A DNA stretch of 64,000 nucleotides, from contig QPGO01000092.1 in the NCBI GenBank assembly GCA_008632985.1, positions 248,001 through 312,000 on the forward strand, written 5' to 3'. The position numbers and the translations under genes were made by a program. The stretch is from Psammoneis japonica (Eukaryota). This document shows, one piece after another, positions 2,556 to 47,555 of the stretch (position 1 is its first letter; every line of letters begins with the position of its first letter). The notes under the pieces were generated by a model. It was given only the letters and a program-made list of their open reading frames with translations, did not search any database and was not told the DNA's origin.

Positions 2556-2628
2556 TGCCAACTGTGCCCACTGCCAGCTAGATGCAAGCATCTTCATGTC
2601 CTTTGTAGATGCCGCTTGGTTCTGGGAA

Positions 2629-6826: not shown

Positions 6827-6829
6827 TTT

Positions 6830-9800: not shown

Positions 9801-10730
9801 CCATTGACTTGAAACAAAGGCTTCAACTGCCACAAGACCTGGCATTGCAAAGGCTCCAACCACTGCCAGCTTGACATCTGGTGGCACCCAAATGCTCCAG
9901 CCACCACCTGTGCCACCAGCACTGTGCCCCAAATGACTGCTGTCATGCAAAAATGACATGGCTGAGCCACTGCCTGCCCCCAACTCTGCCCTCATCCAGT
10001 TGCATGAAGGCTCCAACCACTGGCAGCACAAAGGCTCCAGCTGCTGCCAGCAGTGCCAGCAACAATGTGAGGGCTTCAACCACCATGAGTGACAGCAGTG
10101 CAGAGGGTGCATGTTTTCAGCTTGACAAGAGGAGCCATCATGCACTTGCTTCCACCATCAGCTGCTTTCTGCCAGCTGGAGACAGCACAAGGCATGTGGG
10201 CAAGCTGGGCGGTGGTGCTCATGCTCCACTTTCAGACATCAACTTTGGACAAAAGCCCAGCACCGTGACAACAACAACACTCCAAAAGATGTGGCACATT
10301 CAGTTTTCAAGTTTTTGCTCATGGGTTGGCAACTTGGGCCACACAAGATTTGCCCAAACAGCTGTCAACAAAACACATGTGTTGTGGTGTTGAGTTGCAC
10401 ATGTGCCACCAATTTGCTGCAACTTTCCAAAACATCCTCATGAAATGTTCTGAAAAGTTTTTGTCACACAACAAATTTTTAATTTTTGATTCTGTGTTTT
10501 TCTGGAGGCAGGTTCTGGCAAATCCATTGAAACTGCGTTGTGGGCTGGCCCACTTTGGAAAGTGCTTGAAATTCTTTTTCGTCATTGCATGTCTTTTGCA
10601 CAATGCGTGCAAGGAAATTGCAAAACAACGTTGGGATTTGTGCCAAAGCAACAAATGCACACATGTCTTGAATTTGCACTGAGCACTTCATCATGCATGC
10701 AGACCATAAATTCTGTTGTCTTAACACAAA
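6830..10730. repeat. Heavily decayed repeat or TE-derived sequence, unclassified
   Basis: Almost no TpA and few CpG. Only fragmented Cys/His-rich ORFs; no motif I can name. Confidence 0.45.
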
Positions 10731-10732
10731 AA

Positions 10733-13700
10733 AGTGTCAATCACTGCAGCTTGTTTTCTTTAAAAAGCAAAAGCATTGAAGCTGCTGGGCCTTGCTCTTT
10801 GCATGTGCGGAGCACGTCCAGCTTTTTCTTGAGCATCATTTTCATTTAAAATTTCTTGCTTGCATTTCAGAATGAATTTCCAATCAGCAACATGTTGGGC
10901 ATTGAATGTCACATCTCCTTTGAAGGCTGATTGTCCTGGTGCATGCAGGGCATGATGTGTGGAACGTGCCAGCAAAGGCTGCCACTGATGGTGTGCCACA
11001 GAATGGATTGTCTGCATCCAGGGTGCATTTTGCAGTCAAATGTGCATGGCACATTGCCCAGCACTTGATGCATGTGTTCAACAACTGCACTTGCTTGTGG
11101 ATGTCATGCAGTTGTGGGCTCAACTTCAGCGCCACAATCATCTTGGACCACATCTTTGAGTTGGTGACCAATGAACTCACTTCCACAGTCACATGCATTT
11201 GATGACAGCCAAGAAGAAAGAAGAACATCTGCTCAACCACATCCTTTCCAACAGCCCAGCTGCAGTTGTGGATTCTTCATTTGGAGTTTCCACAACTTCA
11301 AACCATCCGGTTGCTGGACTGGTCATTGTTGAACATTTCAGGGCTGCTGGGAGTTTTTTCTTCTTTTCCTTGAAACACATTTTGCATGGTGCAACAAGAT
11401 CCACACACAGTCATTCCCATGTCTCTGATTCTGTGCACATGGGGCACAAATGCCCACATTTCTTCTGTTTCTTTTTGAATTTTTGGCATGTCTCATGCTT
11501 CAACACACATTTTTGCATATTTTCACACAAAGCAGACCTCCACAAGTGTTGTGAGATTGTCTCTGCTGCTCCATTTGTGCCAGGGTGAAGAAGGCAAGTG
11601 TGATGCCAACCTGTCACTGCCTTTTGTGACATCTTTGGTGCGTTGACTTCATCCTTGTGACATGTGAGCAACCGGTCTCGCTCACCTCCATGAAAAGTCT
11701 TTGTTTGGCATGTCTTGTTTGTCAATTTGGAGAAAATGTCTTTGTCCTGTTTTTGTTCAGCATCAAGAACTTTGCATGTCAATGGAAAGACATTGTTGCA
11801 GGATTTTGGTGGGACCTTTTTGGCCAGATCTTCTGCACTGAGATTTTCCATGGGTTCTGTTTTTCTCACAGTGAGTTGGCTGATCACATCTGTGGCATCT
11901 TTCACCTTGCCCTTGAGGCACATCATTTTGGGGCTGCACTCTTCTGTTGTCAGTTGCCAATGCATGACTCTGTCCTTGTTTGTCTGCTGGCCAAACAGCA
12001 CATTTTGGAACTCTTTTAACATTTCCATGATGGACAGCAGTTCTTTTTCCATTGTGGCACAATGTGTCTGTGCTTCACTCAGCTTGTGGCTGCAGAAAGC
12101 AACAGGTTGGTCATTCTGCATGACAACTGCCCCCAATCAAGAATTGCTCACATCAGCACATGTCTCAAAGGGCACATTAAAATTTGGGTGTGACAACAGT
12201 GTGTCTTTTGAAATGATGCGCTTCATGCTTTCAAAGGCATTTTGTTCCATTTTGGTCCATTGCCACTTTACCTGGGTTGAGGTGAGTTTGGCCAAAGGAG
12301 CCAAAATGTGAGATTGTTGAGGCCACACATGTCTGAACAGCAGTTGATCACACTGACAAACTGTTGCAATTCCTTGTGCAAGTTTCAGGAGTTGCAATCA
12401 CGTGAATTGCTTCTGCTTTTCTTTGGAGTTGCGCCAGCGCCATTGCGGGTGATGTGAAAGCCTGGACTTCCACTTTGGGTTTGGCAAAAAAGGACTTCTT
12501 GGCATTGACCTTCAACCCAGCTTGTTCAAGGTGCATGAACACCTTTTCAAGTTTGTCAAGATGGTCTTGAAAATCACCTTTGGCAAGGCACAGCATGTCA
12601 TCAACGCAAGCTCTGATGAACTCCAGACCTGCCATGAGTTCACTCATGTGCTCTTGGAAAACATCTGGAGCTCCACAGATTCCCCCGCAGGTGGTCTGCA
12701 GCACCCACATTTGCCCCAAGGCACAATTGCAGTGCACAAGCAACATGTGCATGGAGTCAATTTGATGTGACAGCATCCCATGTTTAAATCAAGGGAAGTT
12801 GCATGCATGTGTCCTTCAAGTTTCTGCAGCACATCTTGAATGTCAGGCAGAGCAAACAGAGCATGCATTGACCTCTCACTCAATTCACAAAAGTCAGACA
12901 GAAATCACACTTGGCCATTTTTCTTTGGTTGAACAAAGGTTGGAGCTGCTTCAACTTCGTTTCAAGCAGTTGCATCCAATGCTTGTGGTGGGGGGGAAAT
13001 GGTTTTGTGCAAGAACACAGACTTGCCCCAGATTTTGCCATGAGATCAACTGGTTTCCCAGTCCATTTGCCCAAAAAACCATCAAAAAGGTTTTCAAATC
13101 TTTTTGAGAGGAAGTTTGGTTGTTTTTGCTCCTCTGGAGTTAGATGAGTTGCTGCTGCCATCTGCAGTCACATCATTGAGGTCAGCAGGGTGACAATCTG
13201 AGCAATTGGCCCTGTTGTTAAGACCAGTCATGGCACGAGATTCCTCAATGTGATTGGCATCAAAGAGTGTGTCAACATTCTTCATGGGCACAGTTGCGTC
13301 CTCTGTCACGGTCAGATGGAGCTCACAGGACAGATGGAAAGACAGACAGACAGACAGAAGAAGCTCACTTGTGCTCACTCAGAGATTGATGTTGAAGATG
13401 CCTCTGACAAAGCTGGCTCATGGACCTGGAGCAGTCACAAGCCTCTTTGGCTCACAACTGGTTTCTTGAGATTGGTGCACCGCAAATGATGCTTCTGAAT
13501 CTGAAGTGCATTCTTGGGGAAAACATGCCTTGCAAGGAGCTGTTGACAGTTTTTGAAGGCTCCATCCTTGGATTTGTCTTCAACATCCATGGCACCATTC
13601 TCAAATGCATGTTGAGCATCTCCCTGCAACAACATGCACATGAGATGGAACTCATCCACTTCTTTCTTGATGTTCTGGCCCACCAAGAGTTGTTTGCAGC

Positions 13701-13950
13701 TCTTGAGGAATTCAATGTGCTTGCGAATGCCTTGCTTCTTGCAGCACTTGACATTGATGGTGAAGGTGCAGCTGTCCTTCTTTTCTGGGTGAAAGCACCT
13801 CTCCATCTTGAGGCACTGGCTTGGTTGGAGTGTCTTTGGCTGGGAAATTGACTCATGGCACTGGAGCAATTTTCTCGTGCTTGAAGGAAGACTTGTCATT
13901 GGCAACATGAGGTGACAGCTTCATTTTTGTCTTGTTGCCTTCTGTGGTGT
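10733..13950 (-). mobile_element. Degenerate Ty3/Gypsy LTR retrotransposon internal region (gag, RT, RNase H, integrase)
   Basis: RT: ATSLDLNMGCCHIKL (=GYYHI) and ACVDDML (=YVDD). RNase H: GAVVMQNDQPVAFCSHKLSEAQ..MEKELLSI. Integrase: LLHPG zinc finger and PATGWFEVVE. Domain order RT-RH-IN. LTRs not identified. Confidence 0.9.
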
Positions 13951-14520
13951 GCACACACAATGCACTGTGCTTGAGAAACAAGCACAAACAAAAGCAGAAC
14001 AAAGTGCAAAAAGTGAAAATCATGAGATTAGATCTCACTCAATCATTTTGGGTTTCTCTGAACAACTTCTCAATGGCCCAAAGCTTCTGCACTGCTTCCA
14101 CATGAACAAAGGCCTTTCAGAGAATGCAGTCATGACAACAGATTGTTTGAATGCAATTGCTGTTCACACATGAGATGTCAACATCCTCAAGTGATTGCAC
14201 ATGCAATTTTTGACATCTGGTCAACTCTGTGTGATTGATCTGTCCATCATGCAAACCCACGATTGACGTGCAATTGAAATGTGACAATGTTTAAACACAC
14301 ATGTGTGTGCATGTAAAATGTGCATGACAATGCATGTTGCACTCTCATGCTGACAAACAAGCTGACAGGCAGACACACCTTTTGGACCTGCTTGAGCCAA
14401 GTCATGAGTCAACAGAGCCAATGACCACATCCATTGGATGAAGCACTGCGCCAGGCACTCTCTGGCTGGTTGACCTCCTCACTCTCTCTGATGCTCTCCT
14501 CACAACTTCTCTGGGCCACT

Positions 14521-16560
14521 CTAGAGTGGACCGCAACATTCTTTCAGCTGGAGACAAGGACAAACCACAGCTGTGCAAAGCGCAGAAGGATTTGCAACAG
14601 TGCACTCATTGTTCCCCTGAAGCACAGTCCAGACCACCACCCTTGCAGCATTGTCATTGTTTGGGTCTGTTGCCATCACTGCAATGTCCAGCATGGCATC
14701 TGCTTTGCCAGCAATCTGGCAAGTTTCAATGACAATTCTAGGAGGGAACAGCTGGGAGACAAATCCCAGGTTGCACACATCACCCAATCCATTGGAGTCA
14801 GCATCACACTGATCATGGTTGCAGGTGGTGGGGCAGTCATCCATGGCATCTGCAACATCATCACTGTCAATTGTGACATCTGCAGGAGCTGTGGCCAAAG
14901 CAGCCAAAAAGCCTGTGTCATTGGTCACACAAAGAGCAACCAACCCAACATGGCCTGATGAGTGCACATGCTGGCAGAAGGGTTCAGTTGTGATCACATC
15001 ATGGATGCCATTGTTGTCAATGTCCCACTCATGCTGCACCAAGTTTCCCATCCTTGAACAACTTCCTCTGCGCTGTTGAAATGAATTTGCAAGCCTGTGA
15101 AGCCTGTGCAGCTTGTTCCCACCCAAGCAAAGGGAGCAGCAAGGGTGAAAATGAGGGGTCCTGTTGATCCTGTGATGATGGCACTCACAACAACTGGGTC
15201 GACAGCAAGAGATGCATCAACAGCATGTTGTGTTGTGAAGACAGCAATGAACTCAAGGTCCAGCAGTGGGGTGTCATCAAATTGGATTGCCAGCTTTTTC
15301 ACTCTGGTGCACCAACCTTGACCAAACACCAAAAGCATTCCAGAACACATGGCCTCTGGAAAGTCACCCCCTCCACTTGCAGAAAGGCCGCTGAAGGCTG
15401 ACTGCACAGCACCAGCACCATCAGCAAAGCCTTGCACAAGCCTTGCGGCAGTCCCAGAAGAACCAAAGTTGCCAAAGTCTTGATGTTCAACAAGGCCCAC
15501 TCAAAGACTGGCTGGCAGCGCTGTTGACAAAATGGGTGAGAACTGCAGTTGCCAGTCCCCTTGCTGCAGCAATGTCATCACCCATGGATCCAGTGGTGGT
15601 TTTGATGACAAACATGAGGCCAACACTTTCTTCTCCACTTCCTTCCTCCATTGTCTTTCTGATGCCACAGTCCATCAATGTGGCACACAAATGAGCATCA
15701 AGCACTTGGTGCCCAGCAGCAGTGCCGTGGAAGTTTTCAACCAAGTGGCTGAACATGTCAATGGGCTGCAATGCACAAATCAAGCCCTTTGGGTTTCTGG
15801 GGCCAAAATGAGGATCAGGCTTGGCACCAGCAAGGACTCTTTTGGAAGACTCAAAGACTGCAAATGCTTCAGCTCCACTGCTTTGGAACTTCACAATTTG
15901 CCACAGTGACTGCACATTGTTGCATTGCTTCCACTGGATCACCTGCTGCACAAATTTCTTGTGCCACAGGGCACCCAGAGAAGAGACTGTTGCCTCCAAA
16001 ATTCCAAAAGGCACGTCAAAGTCCCACAATGCAAAGTCAGTGTCAATGGACAGGCAAGGATGGCCTGCAAATGCAACCTTTGTGTCTGGACAAGCTTTTG
16101 TGTGGATGTCAAGTGGCATTTTTTTTCATCAAGGTTCAAAATTGACAACGCCATTGACACCAGCCTTGAGCAAGGTTTCGCAATCCTCAGGATCTTTGAG
16201 ATGGTGACATTGCATGAGGACATTGCAAAAGTTGAAACATTGCCTGTGATGGACACAAAGACAATGTCTGTGTTCTTTGTGACTGCACCCAACTGATTTT
16301 GCAAACACACATTGTCAAGCACAGCTCCAGAGCAAGCTTCATTGATGAGCTGCACTCAAAACATCTCAAAAGGCCAGATGCAGCTTGGAGACAGTCACGA
16401 TGCAGTCCAACCCAGCTCAAATCAGAGTGGCAACATGCAGCATCCTTGCAGTTGCAATTTCTGAAAGAGTCACAAGCACCATTTCCCACAATGTGAGAGC
16501 CTCCAATCACCACAATGCTGATGGAATTTGGCAACCATCTGAAGACATCTTTTTTGCTGG
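14521..16560 (-). pseudogene. Frameshifted multidomain pseudogene: SGNH/GDSL hydrolase + vWA + PKD-like + thrombospondin type-3 repeat
   Basis: VVIGGSHIVGNGA (GDSY block), NEACSGA, TDIVFVSITGN; LMFVI.TTGSMGDDIAAAR and SGGGDFPEAMCSG (vWA); HEWDIDNNGIHD (=YEWD.D..G.YD); DSDDVADAMDDCP..NHDQCDADSNGLGDVC. Confidence 0.7.
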
Positions 16561-17299
16561 ATGGCAGGATTTGAGTCAACTTGCAGCAGAGCCCCATCCG
16601 TCAATCTCTGAAGGATCTAGCCAAGAACCACTGAGAAGTGGACACACACTGCAAACACTTAGAGGTCTCACAGAGCCAAGCTTCTGGCAAAAGCTTGGCC
16701 CCGTGCAAATGAACTCACCATTGGCGCTTGTAGAGGTGAAACCAGAGAATGGTCGCCCTTGGCATTGCATGATGCAGGCACCCCTCCCCAGCACAAATTG
16801 ACCACTGGAAGCCGCAGAGATGCCTGACACCAGTTCCCTGAACATGGGCCTTGGGCGCAGCAAATGGTGAAGCTCAGTGATCCATCCTTCGTCCCTTGCT
16901 TGTTGACTCCCGTGGCCAAACGAGCAAGGCAGAGCACAAAATTGTCCCCGGAAAGTTTGACTGGTCATGACCAGAAAAGACTGTGACCAGTCATCTTGGC
17001 TTGGAGGCTCCCTCCTCCAAATGAGGTCCAATTTGAAGAGCCAAGTGGTTTGGGGTCCACTGCACATGCAGCGTCTCCATCTAAACTTGGGTGCAAAGAG
17101 AGGCATTTCTGGAAGATGCCAGTCCATTGGCAGAAGAGGAAAATTAGAAAGATCTCACCAGGGGGATTGATGCATGCTGGCATCAGTGTCTTTTGTCTGC
17201 TGCCTTCTCAGGCTTGTAATTTCTGACTTTTGGAAACTCCCCGAATGACTCAACTTCTCCATTTTGTGTGATGGAGTGTTGGACTTCAGCTCACTTTGA

Positions 17300-19830
17300 C
17301 TGGACAAATTGATGGAGCTGTTTTTGGACTGCAGACTGCACAGGTGACAACACAGACAATGACAGGGAAAGCCAAATCAAAATGGCTTGCATCAACAACA
17401 TGGCAACACATGCCAACAGATTCTTGGGTGCACCATCTCAGTCAATGTTGCTGAAGATAATTTGAGAAGGTTTTGGTGAGGAAGTCTGCAGTTCAGTTTG
17501 AGTGGTGCATGCGCTTGGTGAGAGGTCGCTGTTTGTGATTTGCTGTCCTCCTCCAATCACAAACAAAAGCAATGATGGGGGCACTGTCTGCATCAAAATT
17601 TTCACAAGGCAACACAGGTGGCCTCCAAACAACAAACAAAGTTGCCCAGGGGATGTCTCTTTTGTTGAAAATGAAAAATGTGAGAGCAAATGCCAAACCA
17701 GAATCTCACACAGTGCCGCAGTGCAGCTGTCTGTTGTGCGGGTTTCTCTCTCTTGAAAAGTTGACAAGGAAACCAAAGTTTTGCTTTGAAAGCTTCTTGT
17801 GTGGCATCCACTGCAGTTTTTGGGAATGGACAATGCATTGGCACAATCTCCAACCAATTGTTTGACAAAATCTGGTCATTTGCATCTCAGTGCAAATGCT
17901 TCCCTCATCTGACACATGCAGACAGCTTTGTTTGTTGAAATCATTTTGAACATTCAAGTGTGAGCACTTGAATGCAATCATTTGAATTTTTCCCAATCTT
18001 GTCTGATCACCAGGGTTTCCAGCCAGTGCCAAGTGCGCTCTGCAGGGGGGCCACTGGAGTGGGAGGGCACATGGTTTTTGCATGTGGAGCATGATGGGCA
18101 GCTCAAAACATGACACACAATGGCATCTTTTGAGGTGTGCCACACAGAGGCAGTGGCTGTGAGGCATGCTTGAGAGAGCAGCTGCACCACCAGCTGCCAA
18201 CAACGTGGCCCCAACCAAGCTCCTCCCAGGTTTTGTGCCATGGATGTCCAAGACAACTCACTTGGCATGTGTGATGCCCTGGGCTCTGCAGGCCCCACAA
18301 GCAGCCATGTGACATGGTGTGTGGTGGGGCAATTCAGCAGCATCTCTGGTGGCACCTGCATTTGAGAGCTTTTTGCAGTGTGTGCAAGACGAGACATGCA
18401 CAAGGGTGACAACTCCAAAATTCACACTCTTGAGCCTTCTTGCCAAAGCACGTGCAGCACCAAAAGCAAGCTTTCTCCATCACTTTGAGCAGCTGCAGAG
18501 AGTGTGGCAAGCACATGTTTGTTCATGTCTTGCATGGAAACAACTCAAGCCTGGACCCTGACAAAAAAGTTGGCATGTCCTTTTCAACAGCTCTGTGCTC
18601 CTGAGCATCAGCAGCAAGCTCACTCACATCAAGCTCACCAGCGAAGGTGGCACACGGGACAAAGCTCTGCTGTTTCTGATTGCAAGTGATGGCAGCGCTG
18701 GGGATGACATGCCCAGCAGCAATGCCCCCCCCCCCCCCTTGCGGCCAAAGGCTCCAGTTTTTTAGCCAGAACATCACACCTGCTGTCAGAGTCACACTTC
18801 CTTGCTCACAAGATGAAGAGCTCTTGTGGTGAACACCCTGCAGCAACCAGCTGCTGTTGTTGTCATGCATCTCCTGTTGTCTGTCTGCAGAGACAGCAAC
18901 AGATGATGTGCAAGCATGTGCCAAAAGCACAGCTCCTGGCAAGCCTGCAGACAGCTCTGTGGGAAGAGAGCTCACCACAGACAAGTCTTGACATGAATGG
19001 CCATTGTTGTGCAAGAAATGCCACTTGCTCAGCATGAAGGATCTGCACATGCAAAATGCCGGCCCAAGTGTGGCTGACTCCACATGAGAGGGCTCAAGCT
19101 CCCTGAATGATGTCTTGCTGCTCTTGCAGGCATGTGAGCTCCGTGCAAAGCATCTTTGAAGCTCCTCTTGCCTGTGACACCTGGCTTGTCAACCAAGCAC
19201 CTGGACCTCTGCCCCTGCACAGGTTGCAGCAACGCCGCTCTTCCAGCAAGTGCAAGAACAATGCAAGACAGCTGGCCAGCCATGCTTGTTGGCCACTCTG
19301 TCTTTTGAAGAAGTGGGGTTGACAGAGTGTTGTGCTGCCTGTCGAACCCCCTGCCTTCTTTCGATGTCCGGCGTTGACAGTTGTGTGACATGTCCATTGG
19401 GTCTGCTTCGATTGCAGTGAATCCGCTTGAGGGGGGTCACCCCCGTGTTTGTCCTGGAATTGCAGTTGCATTTGAACAAGATTTTTCACAGTGCTTGTTT
19501 TTGAATGCAAGAATTGTTCACAGTCACACCCGATCGTGCACGAAAACGAGAACCATCAACACCGCGATCGAAGCACGACGATGATGACAATCATTGACAT
19601 TTCTCAAAAACGCAGCATGCCGTCTATCAACTTTTCATGCACACACAATCTTTGATGCATGACAAACATAAAACAAATGAGAGTTGGTGGATGGACCAAC
19701 TCTGTCACAGACTCATGGCTTGTTGTTTTCACCACGGTGAAGCACGGTGAAATTCAGGAAAAATCATGCAAAACACGAGCTGTTCGACCAAATTCGAGCT
19801 AAAAAAAGTAGCGACTGACCCGCCTTAAAT
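17300..19830. repeat. Decayed TE-like sequence, unclassified
   Basis: TpA-depleted with fragmented Cys/His-rich ORFs. Ends near ...gacccgcc-TTAA (~19828), a possible transposon terminus. Confidence 0.35.
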
Positions 19831-21368
19831 GCTGGCAAGTTAAAATTTGTCAATCGGTGTTCCGTTGAGTCATGCATGTTGCATGTCGGTTACGGATTTG
19901 GAATCCATGCAGTCTCGGTCAGTCATTTGGTTTGTGCGGCAATGCTGCAGAAGTGTGCGTGAAAACAGTCACAAACATTTTCCGTTGTGCACATCCCACG
20001 CAGGAATCTCAGCATGTCCAGCGCGCTGGAGGTGATTCCGCAGCAAATTCCTGATTCCGGACGCGCGTGAGGGCGCTTTCTTGTTAGAATTCACTTGTGT
20101 TCCATTCTCTCTCATTGTGTTCGCGGTTTGGCAAGACTGCAAAGAATCGAAACAACAGAGTTGCTCTCACAAAAACGAAGTTTGCCAACAAAGTGGCACG
20201 GCATTTTTCGAATGACAATGGCATTCCAGGAGAAGACGCAACCTGGAAGGCAGAAGGACGACGTCATTGTGGCAGAGAACGAAAATCAGATTCTGTCAAT
20301 GGCGAAACGCCATGCACCGCCCGATTCATTGGAGAGTGAAGAAGCACACTCGTGCTTGACCACCCTTTTGGAAGCATGGACAACTGAACAAAATAATCTG
20401 GTTGATTGCCAGAGTCCAGCAGAAACAATTGATCCTTTTTTCAATGGGGACGAGGAGTCTGCACAAGAACTGGCAAATGATTTGTCGAATTTTGTTGCTG
20501 GACGAGCAAAAGAAGAAAAGAAGCCAAACGAATCGACGCCATCAAACAACAAGAGCAAACAATTTCACAGGCCGCCGATGCCATCTGAAGAGACGACAGT
20601 CTCTGCCGTCATCACTTCAGCCTCCGAAAGTGACGAAAATGAGGACGAGCGAAGTGAGAAAGCGAAAGCACGCCAGAAGAAGCTCGAAGAGAGACGAGCC
20701 AAGCGTGAAGCACGGAAGCTCAAAAAGCTCAACACCCAAAGCAGCCCTGACGTCAATTTGGCATCTGTGGAAGAACTGGATGACAGTGCAAGTGCATGGG
20801 AAGAACGCAGACAAGACGGAAAAGCTTGGGGTGGGCGCGGGCATGGTGGCAGGGGAATCAGAGGTGACGTCAACATGGCATCGAACATTCACTTGCACAA
20901 TGTTTCTCTCCAGTGTGCCGGAAATGATTTGCTGGAGAATTCAACCATTCAAATCAATGGTGGACATCGATGTGGATTGGTTGGAAGGAATGGATGCGGC
21001 AAGAGCACCCTCCTGCGGAGACTTGCACAGAAGGCTGTTCCAGGCTTCCCTCAAGACGCAGGCGTCCTTCTCGCAGAGCAGCACGTGGCGGGAGGAATGG
21101 AGACTGCCCTCGAGGCTCTTTTAAATGCCGACAAGGAACGAGCTGATCTGCTTCTCAAACAAGAAGATCTTGAGCAGCAACCAGAAAAGATGGCCACGGA
21201 AGACCACGGCAACCTTGAGTCAGTCGCACAGCATTTGGGTGAAATTGCCAGCGAGCTGGACGTGATTGACGTGGACGGAGCCGAAGACCGCGCAAGAGAC
21301 ATTCTTCGTGGGTTGCAGTTCACCACAGAAATGATGAACAGACAGATGCGCAACTCATCGGGAGGATG

Positions 21369-21562
21369 TGTCAGCCTGTCCACACCTGTCGCATGATGGA
21401 CAGACTGGATGCGGATGATGGCCAGACCATTTAGATGGACGAGCAGATCTCTCTGAGATCTGCTTCTCACTTTCTCATCTGCTGGCACTCGTGTCATCAC
21501 AGTCCTGGCACTTTGGGGAGTCTTTCACACCTCTGTCACCATCGACCTTCGGCATTCTGTCA
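21369..21562 (+). repeat. 5' LTR (194 bp)
   Basis: tgtcagcctgtc...ggcattctgtca, matches 28358-28553. Confidence 0.95.
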
Positions 21563-21576
21563 GGTCATGGCCACAC
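21563..21576 (+). promoter_or_regulatory. Putative primer-binding site (ggtcatggcc..., resembles the Copia GGTTATG-type PBS with TA>CA)
   Basis: Lies immediately 3' of the 5' LTR. Confidence 0.55.
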
Positions 21577-24500
21577 GCTGTGCCACAGACCTCTGCGCCA
21601 AGCTTTCTGTCTTGATTCATTTGTTTTGTGAGCCGATCGAGCGAGCCTCATCGTCTGATCCGAACAACTTTTTGTCTCACTTTCCCGGCATTTTTCACGA
21701 CCATAGAAACACACCAGATTTCTGCGCGTGCATGACCAAAAATGGCTCCACCCACTAAAACCATGGCGTCTCCCGACCTTGCAAAAGCTGCTCCTGCGTC
21801 AATTGCAGAGATCTGCTGCGAATTTGAGGCACACACAATGACACCACATCTACATCAGTGCCTGAACACGGTTTGTGCAGACTCCACAACTGATCTCGAT
21901 CGATTTTTTGACGATCCAGAGCACACGCAACCCAAGAACGATTTTGCGGACATGCTTCGCGATCATTTCATCCATGGGGCATTTCCACCTTACACAGCTG
22001 ATCCCACGGATGTAGAGTCAATCAAGACAATTGTGGATCAAGCACCGTTCAGACTTCTTGACCCTCAAAGGCCTCGTCCAGTCCGCCTGACGACTCCGAT
22101 CTCATCAAAGATGATCAAGACGAATCTTCAGAATGGTGAACAATCTCTGTTCATCATCACATCTACCCAACACATGCATGTTGATCCGGACATGATGTGG
22201 AACTGTCGCAATTGGAATGAGTTCTCTCTTGCGCCCCACCAGAAGAAACAGCAGCCTCCGTCTTCTTCTCAGAAACCCACAGGCCCTGCTACATTGACTG
22301 TGACTGACTTGGTCACTGCGCTCAATGCATGCGCGTCGAGCCATGCTCTGCCTTCTACAGCTTCTGCTGAGACATCTGGAAGTGCTGCATCTTCCGCAAC
22401 ATCGAAGTGCCTCTTCAATCCGAGCACACTTCCTGCAGACGTTCGTGCACGCTACGACCGCAAAGAAGACGGAAAAGCCACTCTTCAGAGCTCTCTCGTC
22501 CCTTGCGACCATGGATTCCGTCACTGTGTTGATGCATCCGATCGCATCATCCTTGACGATGGTGCCCTTTTCATCATGAGCTCGACTCCTGATCAGAAAA
22601 TGCTGTTCAGAGAACCTCCTGTATGTCATGACGACTCTCCCCCTGGGACACGAGCATGGCACCAAAATCTCAAACGTCATGCCTTTGATTCAGGTTGCTG
22701 CGTGCATCCCCTGTGGTGTTTTGCCAAGGATCACGGTGGTGAGAAGGGTTTTGAGATCGGCAACGGCAAGGATGATGACTCACCTCAACGCATGTACGTC
22801 CACTGCAAGGAAGCTCAGAGTTCTCTCCACAAAATCCTCTCCAAGTCGGATGTGTTCCCCAAGAACAGCAAGCATCATCGGATTGTTGCATCGTGCTGCG
22901 GCAACGGATGCAAGGCTCTAAAGCAGATTGTCTGCGAGAATCACCCTGCCTTTGATCATGATGCTGCTGGACTTGTTGATTCCCATCCCATCCAAGGCAA
23001 TTGATCATTGACGGACCACCACATGATCTTCAATGATTTCCCACAGCTGCGTGCCTGCATTTTTGATGCGGACTCTACGTTGAACGATCCACGGGAGATG
23101 ACTGTCTTTGTCAAGAACACCAAGTGCTCCAAGTTCTCATCACGTGCCACCAGAGATGAACGGAAGTCTCCAGCTGTGCAGAAGAAGCACACGGATGCAC
23201 AGATTGTCGAGACTCTCTCTGATTTCCTCCGCCAACCGGACAGCCCATCCCTCACCACTCGCACGACGCAATCCAACCCATGCCGAACATGGAATCGAGC
23301 AGATGCTTCTGCGCAACGCACACCCACCAATGTCAACTCTCTCCAGATCCCTGAGATGCCCCTCCATGAACCAGTTGATGACTCTGCCACTGAAGATCCT
23401 GGCACAGAATCTCCACCTCCGGATGCATTTGATGCTCTTTGCGACGAATTGCACGAACTCAAGATCCCATCTGCGGACGAAGATCGAATCCTTCACCATG
23501 TGTGTTCGGCTTCAGTCTACAAACTGAAAGTTGCTCCGCATGGAGCCTCCAAGAAACCATGTCTTGTCTGCTCTGGAGAGCATTTATTTGATGACTGTCC
23601 AGTCCTGAAGAACAACCCGCACATCAAGGGATTCCACATCCGTTTTTGTCAATTCTTAAAACGGGAAGCAGCCACGCGTGCTTCTCATCATGACAATCCT
23701 GAAAATCCGCCTCCGTCTAGCACTCAGCCCTCGGATTTTCAATCGGGCCATCGCAGCCAGTTTCGGATCTCCGACGCTGCCCGTCATCTCCTCACCGAGA
23801 CAAGACCAATGTCAGCGGGATGACCTTGAAAGAGGGGCTAACCGTCTCGTCATCTGCCGCTGCAATGCCTCTTTCCTCACAGATTGACATGGATGCCACC
23901 CCTTCCACCTCCACGAAGATGTCATTTGACACTGGCACGTCACCCGATGATGACCCTGCTCCTCAAGAAGCCTCCATCGATGCTGCTCATGTTCCGGATC
24001 CTTTGGAACAGGGGAGGGAAGACCCAGAAACACCGGTTTTTGAGGAATGTGTTGATCTCACCCACGATGATGTGGCTGTTGAAGACGGTTTTGCTGCCAT
24101 CAATTCTGTTTGTGTTGCTCCGATCGATCCACACCAGGCGAATCACTCACCTGAGCCGGAACTGCTGCGATCCACTTGTTCTGTCAATGGGGCAAACTTT
24201 GCTCCGAATGAACATTGTGCTCAGTTGGATGCAGGTGCCGACATTGCGTGCACAGGTGACTGTGACCTCCTCCATTGCCACCAAGACTTCACTCCATCCC
24301 ATCCCTGTCCCCTTGCTGTCAACCCGGCCCTTGGCCACCAAGCTGTCCCAGTTGGATTCGGCTGTCTTCGCATCCCTGCAGAGAACTCTGATGGCTGTGT
24401 TGAGGTCCGTGCATGCTGCCACCCACAGATCCAATCTACGTTGGTCAATGAGCGACTCCTCCTTCGTCAAAATGGTTCTCGTCACGCAGATTGCAATGTT

Positions 24501-27500
24501 GGTTGCACTCTCAAGTTCCATGATCTCGGTGCCTGCAAGTTTGTTGCACGACGCCGATTGCGCAAGAGTCAGGATGTCATTGTTCATGGAAAATTGATCA
24601 ATGGAAAATGTTTTGCTCACCCTCTCATTCTCCCGGAATCTAACGACGAACTGGATGCATCCATCGAGCGCCTCAAGACTGCTGATCCTTCTTTTGCCGA
24701 TGAGTGTGAAGCGGTCTCTGCGCATGTGATTGACACTTGTCGCACCCACCAACATGAAGCTCTTCGTGATGAACGCAAGTTGATCCCCCGTGTCTGTCAA
24801 GATGTTCCTTTCGAGAAGCATGCTGAGAAGAACATTCCTGTCCAGTCTCTCAAGGCCGACACGGAACGTCTTTTGTGGCATCAGCGACTTGGTCATCCGA
24901 GTGATCACTGCCTTTGTCATGCCCATGAACATGTTGATGGCGTCCCCAAGTTTGCCCACGGAACTTCTCCTCTCGACACTTGTCCTGCATGCATGCAAGC
25001 CAAGCAGACAAAGGAACCTGCCGGTCCGAACACTGCTCTTACTGCCACCCAACCACACCAAGGCCTTGTGATTGATTTTTCCTTCTCTGGCCTACACTCC
25101 AAGAACTCGGAGTGTGCCAAGGACTGTGTTGGATTGAATGGCGAGACTTGTTGGATTGCTGTTTATGATCATAAAACGAAGCGTCTCCATGGTGCAACTC
25201 GTGTCTCCAAGGCAACCCCTTTGAATTGGATTCGCCACTTTCTGGAAGAGCACTCGCCAAAATGTCCAGACAAATGTGCATTTGTGGATCAAGGAGGTGA
25301 GTTGCATCAGAACCCAGAAGTTCGGCGACTCTTCGAGGATGACTTTCATCATGCAATTCGTCCTACGGGAAAAGATGCTTCAAATCAGAGTGGCCCAGTG
25401 GAGCGCAGTCATTTGTCTGTTGCCAATGCCATCCGGGCGATGCTGATCGGCGCCGATTTGCCCATCAAATTCTGGCCCTGTGCTTTTCATCATTTCATTC
25501 AAATCAACAACGCCACACCATCCCGCGGACAACCTGCTGCTCCGATTGCTCTCGCCACTGGTCGGAAGGATGATTTCAAGAACTTTCGTGCGTTTGGTTG
25601 TCGAGTGTGGGTGCGTGCGTCGAATCACTGCCCAGCAAAATTTCGGTCTGTCTCTCGCAAGGGAATGTTCTTGGGCTGTCTTCCGGACACCACCAAGAAC
25701 ATTCTTTGGTGTGACACTGAGACATCGCGTGTCAAGCTTGCCAAGCACATTCGCTACGATGAGGGCATGAATGATCTTCCCCATGACTCTCTTCCACCAA
25801 ATGTGGCTCACTTGGAACGTGCTCAAGATGGCAAGGCTTTGCCTGCCGAGACTGAAGAAACCATGATGGATGAATTCCACTTTCATGGGAATCCTTTTGC
25901 CAAGACCATCAAGCGTGCGATGAAGGGACCATTTGCTGATCCCATGTTTGGACTTTCCTTGGCTACGGACGATCTCTGTCGGTGAGCATTTGTCTCTGAC
26001 ATTGAGCGTGGTTCTCCTGCTGTGCGCATCTTTTCTCTTCTTTGAAGGCCAACCGCAACAAGATCAAGGGTGCGTGTGTCGTGTCGATTGATGATCATCC
26101 TACATTCACGGCATGGGAGGCTGTCAAACGTTTTCAGCAAGTCTGTGATTCTGGCAAGACTCATTTTGAAATTGAATTCGCGCCGGAACGTCGCCTGGAC
26201 TCTCAAGCCCTACAACGTGCTCTGATGGAACACAGCACAAACACACCGAGTCCTGATCCTGATGATGAGCATGTTCCGGAAATCACCAACGCCGACATGC
26301 GTGCCATTGCTGCCATCCGCCACCCCGACATTGATTTCTCCGAAACGGATGATGACGATGTCCCTCCGCCGTTCTTTGTTGATTGTGACAATGGTGTGGT
26401 CAATGTCTGTGCTGTCTCATCTCACGCCATTGCTCCAGAGGAACAAGCCTCAGGTGCTTTCACCCGCCATCACCTCCAGAAGTTGGACACGTGGCCTGAA
26501 TGGCGTGCAGGTGAATTCAAACAACTTGACCAGTTCCATGAGTTGGGGATGTTTGGTGCACCAATTAAATGACCCAAGGATGCCATCGCACTTCGTCCAC
26601 ATTGGCAACATGACCTCAAGCATGATGGTGCACGGTGCTCTCGACAGTGCTGTGATGGATCTCCCCGTGCTGCGTTGATGCTACATCGACTCCACTCGAT
26701 GCACTCGTCCTGTGTTGAGCAGCCTGTCCAACGCATGTTTTTTGCCCTTGCTGTGACCATGAGCCATCCTGTCTTTGGTGGGGATGCTCGTGATGCCCGT
26801 GCACACTCTCCACGACCGTCACACCCCGTGTGTGTTGCCACAGACGAGGCATGTGCAACCTGGCACAAGGCTTGGTTTGGCATTGACTTGGACAGGAGCA
26901 TGGTGCTCCCGATGCAACATGCACTTCAAGGACACCCAGAAGCCGGCGTGCTCTGGGAGACGCACATCAATGGCATTTTGTCTGATGTGAACCTGCTTTT
27001 TCGCAACACTGCTCATGACAAATGTGTCTGCTCTGCTGCTTTTGAAGGACACAAGATCTTGCTCCTCCATCAGGTTGATGATTTCTCTCTTGCTTGTCCT
27101 GAAGAGTCCATTGCGATCAAGATCTATGACAAGATTGGCAAAGCTCTCCAATTGGAATCGGAAACCTCTCCGCCGTTCAAGCATCTTGGCATGATTGATG
27201 AATTCAATGGTGCAGATGTTCACCAATGCGATGATTCCATTGGCACTGCTGTTCACAGCCACACAGATCGGGTTTGTGCCTCGCATGGTTGGTTGACACC
27301 GATGGACGAGGAACTTGACGATGACTGCAAGGCTGTGCCACCACCTGTTGACTCTGTTCGCGAACTGTGCAACACTTTTGGCCCAGCTGAAGGAACCCCG
27401 GAGCATGCGGAACTACAACAAGCTGCTGGTTTCAGCTGCCGAACTCTTCTTGGCGAATTGTTGCATGCGCACGTTGTCTGTCGACTGGACATTGGGCATG

Positions 27501-28348
27501 CCATCACGGCTCTCTCCAAGTTCTCGACCTGTCCTGCTGTGGTTCACTGTGACGTGCTCAAAGGAACATGCAAGCACCTTCGATGCACCAAACATTGGGA
27601 ATTGAACTGCAGGAAGCCCACCCGAGACTCCAAACCACCTGCCTGCCCCTTCGAACGTCTCACTCCGGACCCGACCTTGCCATCATTCCCTTGTCCTGCA
27701 TGTGATCATCAACTCGTTGCTTTCTTGGATGCTGCTCATGGCAATGACCTCCGCAACCGTCATTCTACGACTGGCTGTGCTTGCATGTTAGCTGGTGCTG
27801 CTGCATCTTTTCGGTGCAAGACCCAATCGGTGACCACTGCGAGCTCTACGGAAGCTGAATTTTGTGCTGCTGGAGCTGCTGCCAAGCATGTCCCATGCCT
27901 TTGTCACGTTCTACAAGACCTGGGCTTCCCTCAGACGGAGCCAACCCCGCCACACATTGACAACGAATCGGCGATCAAGATCATCAATCACTCGATCCCG
28001 ACTGAGCGATCCCGTCACATTGAGACTCAGTTTTTTGTGATCCAAGAATGGAAGGAAGCGGGCAAGATTGTCACGAGACACATTCCTGGCATTGTCAACC
28101 CCAGCGATGACCTCACCAAGGCCCTTGGCTGGGTGCCACACGCTCGCCACGCTCGACGCATGATGGGACACTGCTGTTGACATTTTTTTCCGCGGTGGCC
28201 TCCCTGCTGCGCATTGCCCTCTTGTTTGATGGCGCATTGGGCATGGACACTTCTCGTGTCCCATGTCTGGTCTCTCTATTTTTTCCTCACATCATCCCTG
28301 TTCTTTGGTTTGATCTGCACTGTTCTCTGTGTTGAGATGTTGCAGATC

Positions 28349-28553
28349 AGGGGAGGGTGTCAGCCTGTCTGTGCCTGTCGCATGATGGACAGACTGGATG
28401 CTGATGATGGCTAGACCATTTAGACAGACGAGCAGATCTCTCTGAGATCTGCTTCTCACTTTCTCATCTGCTAGAGTGCTCGTGTTGTCACAGTCCTGGT
28501 GCTTTGGGGAGTCTTTCACACCTCTGTCACTGTCGACCTTCGGCATTCTGTCA
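28349..28553 (+). repeat. Polypurine tract (aggggaggg, 28349-28357) and 3' LTR (28358-28553, 196 bp)
   Basis: Purine run abuts tgtcagcctgtc...ggcattctgtca. Confidence 0.95.
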
Positions 28554-30323
28554 GGATGGAGGATGCGTCTTGCCCTTGCACAAGCTTTGTTTGTGCCCAG
28601 TGATGTGCTCCTTGTGGACGAACCCACAAACCATCTGGATTTTCATGCTGTTTTGTGGTTGACCGATTTTCTCTCCAACAGCGGTCAAACACTAATTGTC
28701 GCATCGCACGACCGTGTGTTTCTTGTCATGTGCACCGACATCACATCCTTTGAATGCCGGAAGCTCAGCTGCCACGTCGGAAACCATTCAGCATGCCGTC
28801 AGCAACTGTCAGAAATTGCGGCACGACAGGCGCAAATTCTCGACGCTTCCGAACAGAAACGCGCCAAGGCTGTTGCATTTGTAGAAAAACAACAAGCCAA
28901 TGCCAACAAAAAGAAACAAGACCCGAAGAAGCAACGTCAAGCAAAGATGGTTCGGGAAAAGAAACTAGATTGGATCGGGAATTGCAGGCAAGATGGAAAA
29001 CGACACAAAAACATGTCTCTCAAGAAAATGAGTGAAGACTGCATGCGCGTCGCAGAAAAAGTTGCCGTCGAAGCCGATGAACCTGTGCTTAGATTCAAGT
29101 TCCCCACTCCATCGCGGGGACCCGGCATGGGCTTGGGAAGCAATTCGCTCTTCACATTGGATGATTTCTCGTTTGGATGCGATCTAGATCGGCCCTTGCT
29201 GATCCGAGAAACAACCCTTGCTTTAGATCGTGGGAGCAAGGTAGCTGTTGTTGGAAGAAATGGAGGTGCGTGTGAAAGAAACAGTGATGCATCCGACCTG
29301 TGATTCACGTCGTCTTACATCAATTCAATGCACTCCGTTTTGTTGCCCCAGCTGGTGAATCAACGCTGTTGAAACTCATTGCAGGCGATTTGCCCCCAGA
29401 TGGACGATCTGTGTGCAGTTCAAGTGGTGGAATTTGGCGCCACCCATGCTTGCGGGTGGGCCATGTTTCTCAGCATTGCGCCGAAGAGTTGGAGCAGCAC
29501 TCGGACTTGACTGTTGCATCACACGCCGAGAGCTGCTTAGGGTCGGGCTCAGCCTGTGGTGAAATTGCCATGAAGGCATCTGGAAACATTCGCCAGCATC
29601 TTGGAGCCTTTGGCCCAGGTGGGAAACATGCCCTGAGAACAATTGGCAGCCTTTCCGGAGGCAAACGAATGAGGCTTTGCTTTGCCACCGTCATGGCGGA
29701 GCGACCACACCTGCTTGTCACCGATGAACCAACAAATCATCTTGATCTGGAAACACTGGATGCCTTGTCCTCTGCTCTCAATGACTGTGAAGGAGCTGTT
29801 GTTGTTGTGAGCCACAACCAAGGTGCGTGCAGGACGACAACGAACGATGTGACCTAGAATCTCGCTTGTGACATGACCACACTTACGCTGCTGCATGTGT
29901 TGCTCCAACAGACTTCCCACGCGGATTTTGCAATGAATTGTGGGTTGTAGAGAATGGTCACATGGATGTTAGACACAGCGACACGGAGAGTTTTGAAGAG
30001 ACGTTTGCCAGCTGCCGAAGTGATGTCATGAAAGGAGCGAAGCAACGCGGGAATGCACGAGAAAGCAGAGCCAAGATGGCGAGGCGAGCGAAGCAGCAAA
30101 GGGCCGGGGCGCAACTTAAGAGTGGTTTCATTGGACAAACTGAAGCCTGGCTAACTGCTGTTGCTGTTCCATCCTGGTTTCCCTTCATTTCATCAGTTGG
30201 GGAGAACTGCTTGTGGGAAAAAGACAGTCTCTATTTTGTTTTGTCAGATCTCAATCACACATCATCAACATTCTCGCAACAAACGATGGGTGTTCTTTGT
30301 CTGTTTTGTTGTTGGTGCCCCCC

Positions 30324-30713
30324 GACGGGTTCCAGTCCTAGGTGGGACTCCGTGTGACATTGGGCCCGTAGAATTCTACGTGCGAGCTCCGTAGTACGAG
30401 AATTTAATTAATGGATATATTTATCTTCAACATCAAATAAACTGCCAAGTTTGTGGTACAATTATGCCTCTTGCCACTCGACGTTTTTGCAAATGCGCCT
30501 GCCCTACGCGATTCTTAAGACATTATAGAATCGCGCTGTAACAAAAAATGTCAAAAGTTGTTGGACGGATCGCTCAATAAGTGTACCGTAAAATGACACA
30601 AAATATCGAAAAAATCACGTAGAAATCTACGTGCGCGACATACGACGTGATTCAAAAAACTATCGATGTCACAGTTCAGTAGTACGAGGTCCCACCTAGA
30701 CCTGGAACGCGTC
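30324..30713 (+). mobile_element. Young MITE (390 bp) with ~26-bp imperfect TIRs and 4-bp TSD CCCC
   Basis: gacgggttccagtcctaggtggga ... tcccacctagacctggaacgcgtc, flanked by cccc on both sides. TpA-rich although the flanks are TpA-poor. Confidence 0.9.
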
Positions 30714-30719
30714 CCCCAC

Positions 30720-32130
30720 ATGAAACTGCTGCTAACTCCACTCTGTGCGTCTGGCGTTTTGTTTGCGGCCAGCTTTCTCATGTGGCAATGGCGACTGTCA
30801 ACAATGATGGCGGCGATGTCATTGCAACAGATGCAACGTGTTCTCACCCATCCAAAGATCGCAGCGCCCCGAAGCGTCCAACGCCACCTCTTCAGCTGTG
30901 TTGTCAGGCCATGCTTGAGCAAGGAAAGCAATGTCACGAATGCACGTCGCACGTCATGCTTTCTTTAGAAGAAAAGCAGCCACATGTTGATGTGTGCAAT
31001 GCCGACATGGACAGGTTTCGGCTCGAGCTCGAGGCATGCAACCCTCCACCAGGATGCGACCAATGCGAAGCATGGCTGGAATCAACAAGTTGGCATGACA
31101 TCGTTGCCAATCCTTCCATGGTCGAGTCGGCAAGCATGGGCTGGGAAAATTTTCATCACATGGCGACTTTGTCGGATTGGGAAAAGCAGTCGCGCTTTGT
31201 CAAGAACTTTCGCAGGACACATTTCGTCGATGACGAGTCCATTGACTGGCATGTGACGCCCGACGACATTCCAATGAGATTCCCGCACATGTGGAGGATG
31301 TTCAACAAGTTGTCGAGTCATGGGTGAAACAGATGGAGCTGGACATGACGGGTGGCGAATGGAGACGGCAAGATCATCCGGCGACCATGACGCTGCTTGA
31401 CGACGGTTCGCCGGCGGCAGACATGACAGTCGTTGCCTTTGAATCCAATCAAGATGACAAGCTGGAACATTGGAGAGGTCCACATGATGCGACTTGGGTG
31501 GCTTTGGAAACACATTCAAAGAAAGCTCTCATTGTGGGGACATTTGGTGCACATCTGGTGGTTGTTTGCAACCTGCTGGAGTTTTACAACAGCGATGGAT
31601 CGACTGCCATGAGCCATGACCTACCGACAGAAAAAGGTTCAGAACTGCTGGCAGCAGCCCTCAAGATTGCTCAAGAGTGTCTTTTTGACCAAATGCACCA
31701 GTCGCTGCAAGGATTCGCTTTTGGTTTCATTTGTTGGCGTTGCGTGTGTTCGAGCTTCTACAACCGCACTCGGCACTGGTTGTCTACAACGACCTGTCAC
31801 TGCAGGCACCGCTTGCTTACGATGATCATTGAGGACCACGACGACAAAGGCGGCACCGCTTGTGCTGACAGTCTTTGTGTTGCATCTGGCTGGGCATCAA
31901 CATTCCCTGAAGCCGGACTCTGTCAGCAGACGTCAGCACAAACTATTGTCACATGGCAAATGCAGAGCCATTCATTCCTTTTCGGCACACATTGTGGAGC
32001 GGCAGCCAATGAACGGGGGGTTGCTTGTCGCAAGCGGCAACGGCTCAACGCTCAACGGCAAGAATCTCGCCAAGACCAATCATTGGACAAACTAACGTCT
32101 TCCCTACCTTCCATCTTTCCTACTGTGTGA
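30720..32130 (+). pseudogene. Degenerate coding sequence of unknown function (ORFs 30782..31327 and 31291..32130, frameshifted)
   Basis: Long overlapping protein-like ORFs, Tyr-poor and Cys/His-rich, TpA-depleted. Confidence 0.4.
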
Positions 32131-40081: not shown

Positions 40082-40779
40082 AGAGAGAAGGGTCGTGTGG
40101 ATGATGATGCATCGAAAGGCACAGGAAACAGCGAGAGGCTCTGCTCTGTGAGTTGAATGATTTTGATGTGTGTCGATCAGTTGGCAGATGCAACGACAGA
40201 AGATCTTGTGCACACTTGAACTCCCCTGTTTTCATTGTGACAAAGATGTTGCATGTGAAGTGGACTCGCGATTTCTTTGCGAAGAAGCATTCGCCGTCTG
40301 TTTCTTGTCAGGGTCACGAGCTCTTTCTTGCATTGGCTAGATTGTCTTGTTTCCATTGACTGTCTTGTTTCTGTTGACCACTTTGGTGACAGCGTGAGTT
40401 GTGATCCCGATGAACATGCTAAAAAGCTAACACGAGAATGAGGTTTGAGCTAAATCCTGCTTTTTTATTCTGGGTGCCCAAGACATTTTCATCGCGAGCT
40501 TCCAAGACAGATGCAGTCTCGATTTTGCATTTACGAGACGTCTTGTCTGTCACAGCGGGCAATGGGCTGTTGACAACACATCAACTGCTTGCTTGAATGC
40601 TTGAGGATCACTTGCCAGTGCAACATCTGTCGTCACTGGTTCACTTTCGAATGTGGCATGTCCTCCTGCATGAGCTTTCGGTTTCAACCTCTTTCTGATG
40701 ACTGCCATTGTGCATCAATGCTTTCATCTGATGATGAGTCCACAGACTTTGCTTCTTCCACAAGCGACGGCACTCATGC

Positions 40780-47004: not shown

Positions 47005-47054
47005 ACCAGTGCATGTTGGTGGTGCCAGAACAGCCATGCCATCCCAGCTCAGGA

Positions 47055-47525: not shown

Positions 47526-47555
47526 TGCTGCCTGTGGTGACACCCAAATTTTTGG

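Follow-up and report, generated by a model that had tools for sequence, protein, structure and literature searches.

The 64,000-nucleotide stretch of the Psammoneis japonica genome analysed here (contig QPGO01000092.1, positions 248,001 to 312,000; hereafter the window) carries a long terminal repeat (LTR) retrotransposon of the Ty1/Copia type, inserted in a host gene for an ABCF-type ABC ATPase. The Copia element, its flanks and the 25-kb domain that surrounds them have very probably undergone hypermutation of chromosomal DNA after integration, whereby TpA was converted to TpG or CpA. The comparisons described below establish the signature of this hypermutation, its direction, its sequence motif, the domain structure within which it is found, and its timing after integration.

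The course of events can be reconstructed in outline. The Copia element would have integrated into the ABCF gene of this pennate diatom, and hypermutation would then have converted nearly every TpA to TpG or CpA in Copia, in the flanks and in the surrounding transposon-rich domain of 25 kb. The elementary event is a change of A to G at the A of 5′-TAY-3′ on either strand (Y, pyrimidine; R, purine), which is the same as a change of T to C at the T of 5′-RTA-3′ on the partner strand. The two LTRs would have been hit independently, with opposite-strand hits at one site producing a CA/TG mismatch between them. The process is regional and sharp-edged. It outpaces background substitution by a wide margin and also exceeds CpG decay in speed, and genes are inactivated by amino-acid replacement (Tyr to His or Cys), new stop codons not being the means.

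The Copia element and its two LTRs

The two LTRs were delimited by repeat search, alignment and inspection of the raw sequence (Table 1). Both have TG...CA termini, a 5-bp target duplication of GGATG lies on each side of the element, and a purine run, AGGGGAGGG, is found immediately 5′ of the 3′ LTR in the position of the polypurine tract. Matches to the gag-pre-integrase, SH3_retrovirus and RVT_2 domains occur in the order integrase then reverse transcriptase (RT), which is the Copia order. The LTR termini, the length of the target duplication and the location of integrase upstream of an RVT_2-type RT are thus all those of Ty1/Copia elements. The closest relatives are Ty1/Copia proteins of the pennate diatoms Cylindrotheca, Nitzschia inconspicua and Fragilaria, with the best match of the RT at only 58% identity. 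Neither blastn nor tblastx found a second copy of the element in the 64-kb window. The family is multi-copy, as indicated by the contigs of run X1, whose summed depth is 1700-6400 within the element versus about 64 in the flanks, and it amounts to tens of copies by this measure. Runs X2 and X3 contributed no contigs to this region.

A global alignment of the LTRs has 19 differing columns, 14 of which are accounted for by seven doublets at which CA in one copy stands opposite TG in its partner (21381-2, 21383-4, 21436-7, 21486-7, 21495-6, 21509-10 and 21540-1). The 5′ LTR has CA at six of the seven and TG at one, and the 3′ LTR has TG at six of the seven. The remaining columns comprise one C/T difference at 21423 (CCAG versus CTAG), one G/T transversion at 21413, and a 2-bp indel with an adjacent G/A difference, for which an alignment of GCTGG with GCTAG and a separate AG indel, as in the original prediction, is just as good. 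At two sites that are mutated in the 5′ LTR, TA is retained in the 3′ LTR (28412-3 and 28472-3). The LTR pair therefore has 16 TA-type changes for one other substitution. When 17 transitions were placed at random on the LTR in 200,000 simulated trials, at most four CA/TG doublets arose and never seven. Five dinucleotides are CG in both LTRs, none is CG in one and CA or TG in the other, and one is TA in both. The original prediction, made by eye from the same sequence, had noted about seven CA/TG sites, two sites with TA in the 3′ LTR, a single other substitution with one 2-bp indel, and several CpGs intact in both copies, and the alignment bears out each of these counts.

An ancestral TA, and not CG, is strongly favoured at the discordant doublets. 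In a two-copy likelihood analysis of the LTR pair, TA is preferred over CG by a factor of about 1.2e4 if both rates are left free, and by about 5e7 if CpG loss is fixed at a rate of 0.25, a value near that of the element's interior. Under the TA model the pair comprises seven opposite hits, two single hits and one untouched site, and the best-fitting probability of a hit per copy is 0.88. Sequence context is in agreement: all seven double-hit sites, if they were TA, have a 3′ pyrimidine (TAY) on at least one strand, and the three LTR sites that retain TA are all YTAR (CTAG, CTAG and TTAG), which is the best-surviving TA context across the window. The chance of such a split in context between double-hit and retained sites is 1 in 120. 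At 21566, 24063, 26103 and 26083, among 40 listed places of the 1616 that vary across contigs of the Copia family (1264 of the 1616 being transitions), CA or TG in this copy corresponds to T or A in the family.

Codon changes in Copia and in a single-copy host gene

The coding sequence of the element provides a test of ancestral state that is independent of the LTRs. The integrase and RT frames were aligned with 40 and 60 diatom homologues, respectively, and the 37 columns with a conserved Tyr (codon TAY) now read His (16), Cys (16), Phe (3), Arg (1) and Tyr (1), so that Tyr has become His or Cys in 32 of the 37. Both frames contribute to this outcome: the 14 columns in the integrase frame read Cys 7, His 6 and Phe 1, and the 23 in the RT frame read His 10, Cys 9, Phe 2, Arg 1 and Tyr 1. 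At 49 columns with a conserved Arg, Arg is retained in 34, and the CpG-decay products Cys, His or Gln are present in only nine. A codon-level classification of the 175 columns that differ from the consensus assigns 51 to single-step TA-type changes (TA to TG, 28; TA to CA, 23), indicating that both strands are affected about equally, and 17 to CpG-type changes (CG to TG, 9; CG to CA, 8). The rest are other transitions (15), transversions (48), multi-step changes (42), and two columns that are ambiguous between TA to TG and a transversion.

The same changes extend into host DNA that is single copy by contig depth (about 64). The Copia insertion point falls in the LSGG signature of the ABCF gene, the frame of which continues across the insertion. 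In three pieces of the gene all six conserved Tyr columns have changed (Cys 3, His 3), and 16 of 20 conserved Arg columns are retained. The gene is hypermutated in the same way as Copia and also has a frame change near 29288-29300, and is therefore regarded as a pseudogene. As a control, a MYST acetyltransferase gene located in a domain of normal TA content retains 18 of 21 conserved Tyr, and a Fisher test on Tyr columns separates the Copia RT from MYST with P = 3e-8. Homologues of the host genes in the window come from raphid pennate diatoms, with identities of at most 67% over most of the length (67% for the nearest relatives of MYST).

A family of miniature inverted-repeat transposable elements (MITEs) offers a comparison of a mutated with an unmutated copy. 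Its members are about 390 bp long with terminal inverted repeats of about 25 bp, and copies are found at 30324-30713, 62899-63294, 46605-47004, 42178-42544 (minus strand) and 3907-3990 (minus strand). The first two are TA-rich islets within TA-depleted domains, and each of these young copies is flanked by a short direct duplication seen by eye (TGCT and CCCC). The third and fourth are TA-poor, and the older copies are depleted in both TA and CpG. When the 29 TA sites of the TA-rich reference copy (Table 1) are read in the hypermutated copy, 23 have become CA (14) or TG (9), one is still TA, and five are otherwise changed. The Tyr codons, the ABCF gene, the MITE pair, the MYST control and the LTR likelihood all support the claim in the original prediction that the CA/TG sites descend from TA.

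Direction and sequence context of the changes

The survival of TA depends strongly on its neighbours. Expressed as relative density in depleted over normal domains, the tetranucleotides fall into three classes: RTAY at 0.008-0.02 (ATAC/GTAT 0.008, ATAT 0.009, GTAC 0.02), RTAR/YTAY at 0.03-0.17 (ATAG/CTAT, ATAA/TTAT, GTAA/TTAC and CTAC/GTAG), and YTAR at 0.37-0.43 (CTAG, CTAA/TTAG and TTAA). Judged from these densities, the survival pattern is that of a strand-wise rule in which the target A would be marked either by a purine two bases 5′ or by a pyrimidine 3′. A tetranucleotide table of gains and losses is confounded by CpG decay. The direction of hits at YTAY and RTAR sites decides between the two forms of the rule, and the "-2 purine" reading was dropped in favour of the "+1 pyrimidine" reading. 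At MITE sites with TAY on one strand only, the A of the TAY strand is the one changed in 15 of 18 cases (P = 0.004), with YTAY going to TG by 6:2 and RTAR going to CA by 9:1. By a hand tally of the listed hits, YTAY sites in Copia read TG in 16 cases and CA in six, such that 16 of 22 follow TAY. In 44 of the 51 oriented hits the edited A is followed by a pyrimidine, a proportion that is partly forced by the Tyr codons.

Processive, strand-coherent hits were also considered and rejected, as the order of CA and TG along Copia is random (runs test, z = 0.21, 51 oriented hits). The heterogeneity of CA and TG between bins is likewise no higher in depleted than in normal domains.

TA-depleted domains in the window

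TA-depleted domains with sharp boundaries take up about three quarters of the window, at 7-32 kb, 38-52.4 kb, 60.6-64 kb and, more weakly, 0-4.5 kb, and contain 0-7 TA per 500 bp. The TpA odds ratio in these domains is 0.04-0.2, and those of CpA and TpG are 1.3-2.2. Normal domains at 32-38 kb and 52.5-60.5 kb have 12-34 TA per 500 bp (8 in one bin) and an odds ratio of about 0.5-0.66. The edges are sharp to about 100 bp; for example, there is no TA from 51185 to 52371, and thereafter one per 10-30 bp. The depleted domains contain Copia, Gypsy RT/ribonuclease H remnants (located at 11414-12788 on the minus strand), a Mutator-like frame, the old MITE copies and the ABCF pseudogene. The normal domains contain intact long open reading frames (ORFs) for DUF1275, an NSUN/RsmB-type methyltransferase, MYST and astacin. 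The sharp edges and the inclusion of single-copy DNA suggest either a chromatin domain or spreading from repeats, and the unmutated MITE copies suggest either arrival after the hypermutation episode or episodes, or an escape of short repeats.

The depleted domains are not uniform with respect to CpG. Over the whole Copia element the TpA odds ratio is 0.10 (42 TA in 7185 bp), and in Copia and its surroundings the CpG odds ratio is 0.70, so that TpA alone has been lost. The segments 7001-19500, 40500-48000 and 60600-64000 are low in both TpA (odds ratio 0.04-0.1) and CpG (0.09-0.35). Since some depleted domains have also lost CpG and the Copia region still has it, TpA loss appears to saturate before much CpG decay has taken place. 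The difference between domains depleted in both dinucleotides and the TpA-only Copia region points either to two processes that differ in speed or to a difference in age.

Depletion also alters the supply of stop codons. TAA and TAG are about fivefold rarer in depleted than in normal domains, and TGA is commoner. As TAA and TAG have been erased, every frame-ending stop in Copia is TGA, and long false ORFs appear in all six frames; there are 130 stop-to-stop frames of at least 130 amino acids across the window, with much overlap among them on both strands. The TGA at 23002-23004, between the first two Copia frames, is specific to this copy. In other copies, C is present at 23002 (CGA) for about 94% of the contig depth, so this stop arose by CpG decay (CGA to TGA) and not by the TpA process.

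Alternative explanations

An origin of the seven LTR doublets by decay of methylated CpG would require that the sites were CG at integration and were then deaminated on opposite strands in the two LTRs. CpG decay is real in this copy, given that at about 12 of the 40 listed variable places its TG or CA corresponds to CG in the family, that CpG-type codon columns are present in Copia, and that neighbouring domains have low CpG odds ratios. As the source of the doublets it is nevertheless very improbable: the intact CpGs with no half-decayed member stand beside seven double hits, the likelihood of CG lies far below that of TA whether taken at its maximum or at the interior's CpG loss rate, Arg codons are mostly retained where only one Tyr is left, and the two sites with TA against CA or TG, with their YTAR context, would go unexplained. 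The claim that TA was lost quickly over a nearly unchanged background holds for TA, and has to be corrected for the background, in which much slower CpG decay is present as well. Editing before integration, either A-to-inosine change on RNA by ADAR- or ADAT-like enzymes or deamination of cDNA during reverse transcription, has precedents in the edited retrocopies of animals. ADAR and tRNA adenosine deaminases moreover favour A to G with a 5′ U or T, according to the available part of the preprint bioRxiv 10.64898/2026.01.13.699255. Such editing is scarcely credible here, as both LTRs are copied from one template and should share the same edits, yet 16 TA-type positions differ; the two strands are hit about equally (28 and 23); and the single-copy host gene is hit on both sides, as are MITEs, which have no RNA intermediate. 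That the LTRs differ, that both strands are hit and that the single-copy flank is hit together argue for a process at the level of DNA after integration, and the case made in the original prediction against RNA editing or RT error is supported.

A technical origin, whether base-calling errors at a modified TpA base or a chimeric assembly that mixes LTR copies, has in its favour the family of tens of copies, a record that names a platform neither for the assembly nor for run X1, and the anchoring of only about 30 bp of each LTR to unique flank by a listed contig. It is very unlikely all the same. The X1 contigs, built from exact 31-letter words at a depth of about 64, match the TA-depleted flanks with one difference in 398 bp and one in 316 bp, an agreement that noisy reads would not produce. 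The matching GGATG duplications and the ABCF frame continuing across the insertion bind both LTRs to one insertion, and the same signature is found in single-copy DNA. A different chemistry for the same DNA-level hypermutation deserves more weight and is a live possibility, if an unlikely one. Here the thymine of 5′-RTA-3′ would be modified (for example by TET/JBP-type hydroxylation) and mispaired or misrepaired to C, or a TpA-specific nick or glycosylase would be followed by error-prone repair. By sequence, A to G on one strand is indistinguishable from T to C on the other, and TAY is RTA on the partner strand; in dinoflagellates, much of the thymine is replaced by 5-hydroxymethyluracil, preferentially in TpA. 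Two observations lean the other way without being decisive: the products are almost purely transitions at TA (23 of 29 in the MITE pair), as expected for inosine pairing with C, and TadA/ADAT substrates have a fixed context, with a T 5′ of the A that is edited, an ADAT2 candidate being described for Bigelowiella natans in the available part of the preprint. Enzymatic deamination of A to inosine in chromosomal DNA at TAY is the most likely chemistry, with about an even chance of being the correct one.

Several points weigh against post-integration hypermutation at TpA as reconstructed here. Because CpG changes do occur in this copy, one of the seven LTR sites could in principle be CpG-derived, and none of the 40 variable places listed for the family (of 1616) falls in the LTRs. 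No gene for a deaminase or other candidate enzyme was found in the window by Pfam searches, which on long frames extended to E up to 1. Run X1, which covers the region, may be the source data of the assembly, in which case the base calls lack independent confirmation. Two repeated MITE copies of 390 bp lie unmutated within depleted domains. Lastly, given the random order of CA and TG, the 6:1 split between the LTRs does not speak for processive events on single strands.

Relation to known mutational systems

Comparable hypermutation has been described for the chlorarachniophyte B. natans, as set out in the available part of a preprint (Mettrop et al., bioRxiv 10.64898/2026.01.13.699255). In mutation-accumulation lines of that organism, two integrated viral regions acquired 231 mutations, of which 230 were A to G or T to C, all at TpA, at a rate about 1000 times background. 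Reverse-transcriptase and DDE domains were over-represented among genes low in TpA, a candidate enzyme resembling ADAT2 was identified, and the signature was proposed to reflect defence against mobile DNA (bioRxiv 10.64898/2026.01.13.699255). The resemblance to the window is close as far as that source goes: in both cases TpA changes to TpG or CpA, with A to G and T to C confined to TpA, the process is regional with the remainder of the sequence normal, and it is tied to foreign or mobile DNA with single-copy DNA included. In scale, the roughly 1000-fold excess over background in B. natans compares with an excess of hundreds-fold or more here, a figure that depends on a single background substitution.

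The two cases differ in other respects. The host here is a diatom, that is a stramenopile, whereas the chlorarachniophyte is a rhizarian. The targets are Copia, Gypsy remnants, MITEs and a trapped pseudogene, in contrast to the giant-virus or virophage inserts described for B. natans. Depletion in the window is near saturation (odds ratio 0.04-0.14), compared with 0.45 in the B. natans region derived from nucleocytoplasmic large DNA viruses (NCLDV), and the preference for a 3′ pyrimidine (TAY) has no counterpart reported in the abstract, Results or Discussion of the preprint. The evidence from the window is historical, being a comparison of sequences, whereas that from B. natans is direct, being drawn from mutation-accumulation lines. 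No description of TpA hypermutation in diatoms was found in the full-text literature within reach, including passages of three papers on diatom transposons or methylation (PMC9998398, PMC2806351 and bioRxiv 10.1101/2025.10.24.684338), with subscription journals outside this scope. The 2026 B. natans preprint is the sole precedent found, and the present case adds a different lineage, retrotransposons and MITEs as targets, saturation, and a defined 3′ context.

Repeat-induced point mutation (RIP), known from Neurospora and other fungi, is similar in that it introduces dinucleotide-specific transitions at the level of DNA, ruins transposons, spills into single-copy DNA and acts in sharp regions. 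The direction is the opposite: in RIP, C to T creates TpA from CpA/TpG along with stop codons, whereas here A to G destroys TpA and removes TAA and TAG. The composition of the depleted domains, with a TpA odds ratio of 0.04-0.14 and CpA/TpG of 1.3-2.2, is thus not that left by RIP, the enzymes of which are relatives of the cytosine methyltransferases RID and DIM-2 and are not applicable here. With regard to a dependence on duplicated sequence beyond a certain length, such as RIP has, the multi-copy Copia is hit, the single-copy flanks are hit as well, and the two 390-bp MITE copies are not. To our knowledge, RIP-like mutational defences have been thought to be essentially fungal.

Deamination of 5-methylcytosine at CpG also yields TG and CA from a palindromic dinucleotide hit on either strand, and it operates as a slower, separate process in the window. 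The source here is TA and not CG, with the LTR pair and the test on Tyr and Arg codons excluding CG as the main cause. A further likeness is to TadA/ADAT2 and the laboratory adenine base editors derived from TadA, which turn A into inosine (read as G) and require a 5′ U or T; the natural site of TadA, U-A-C-G, fits TAY. Natural TadA and ADAT2 act on tRNA, with natural DNA activity in a few cases only, as cited in the available part of bioRxiv 10.64898/2026.01.13.699255. By analogy with B. natans, the process in the window would be enzymatic, most likely the work of a TadA/ADAT2-like adenine deaminase acting on DNA, and its role may be defence against mobile DNA. Of the broader proposals, it is conceivable, and can be held only tentatively, that enzymatic adenine deamination of double-stranded chromosomal DNA at 5′-TAY-3′, carried out by a natural DNA adenine deaminase, is a genome defence of diatoms that clears TpA from transposons and the sequence between them soon after insertion, and that is shared with Bigelowiella, old and widespread in the Stramenopiles, Alveolata and Rhizaria (SAR), and a mirror image of fungal RIP.

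Should it hold, the diatom case would extend the erasure of TpA to major marine primary producers and would suggest a wider distribution. The TAY motif would help in looking for the responsible enzyme, which may be a naturally occurring DNA adenine deaminase. There are also consequences for genome annotation. The expectation that dating by LTR divergence would overestimate the age of this element is borne out, given that all but one of the 17 substitutions between its LTRs are of the TA type, and repeat landscapes based on Kimura distances would likewise suffer severe inflation in genomes of this kind. Gene finders would call long false ORFs in depleted domains because TAA and TAG have been erased, and homology searches would miss hypermutated elements.

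Other features of the window

Table 1. Coordinates of the Copia element and associated features in the window
Feature	Position	Strand	Basis or remark
Target-site duplication GGATG, left copy	21364..21368		read from sequence
5′ LTR, 194 bp	21369..21562	+	repeat search, alignment
Copia internal region, degenerate	21563..28357	+	in-frame TGA stops 23002, 26570; frame changes near 23721-23820, 25983-26006
Open frame with gag-pre-integrase and SH3 (integrase) domains	23721..25982	+	domain matches
RVT_2 reverse transcriptase / ribonuclease H frame	26573..28177	+	domain matches
3′ LTR, 196 bp	28358..28553	+	repeat search, alignment
Target-site duplication GGATG, right copy	28554..28558		read from sequence
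ABCF-type ABC ATPase pseudogene, upstream part	20071..21368	+	domain match, contig depth; TA-depleted
ABCF pseudogene, downstream part, two frames	28554..29854	+	domain match
TA-depleted domain containing Copia	7001..32000		TA counts; interrupted by MITE 30324-30713 and islet 19625-19891
Second TA-depleted domain	38001..52371		TA counts; sharp right edge
Third TA-depleted domain	60606..64000		TA counts; interrupted by TA-rich MITE 62899-63294
Unmutated TA-rich MITE, taken as reference state	62899..63294	+	repeat comparison
Hypermutated copy of the same MITE	46605..47004	+	repeat comparison

Three further regions are of note. The islet at 19625-19891 contains seven TA between two depleted stretches, lies directly upstream of the ABCF frame, and has no repeat match in the window. 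The segments 38001-40500 and 48000-52371 are TA-depleted with CpG near normal, a GC content of up to 56% and long frames, on which no usable Pfam match was found even at E up to 1. The region 4480-7000 is TA-normal and includes a 426-amino-acid minus-strand frame without a family match. It also has internal repeats, namely 192-bp units at 5213-5404 and 5585-5776 (74% alike) and 72-bp units at 6680-6818 (96% alike).

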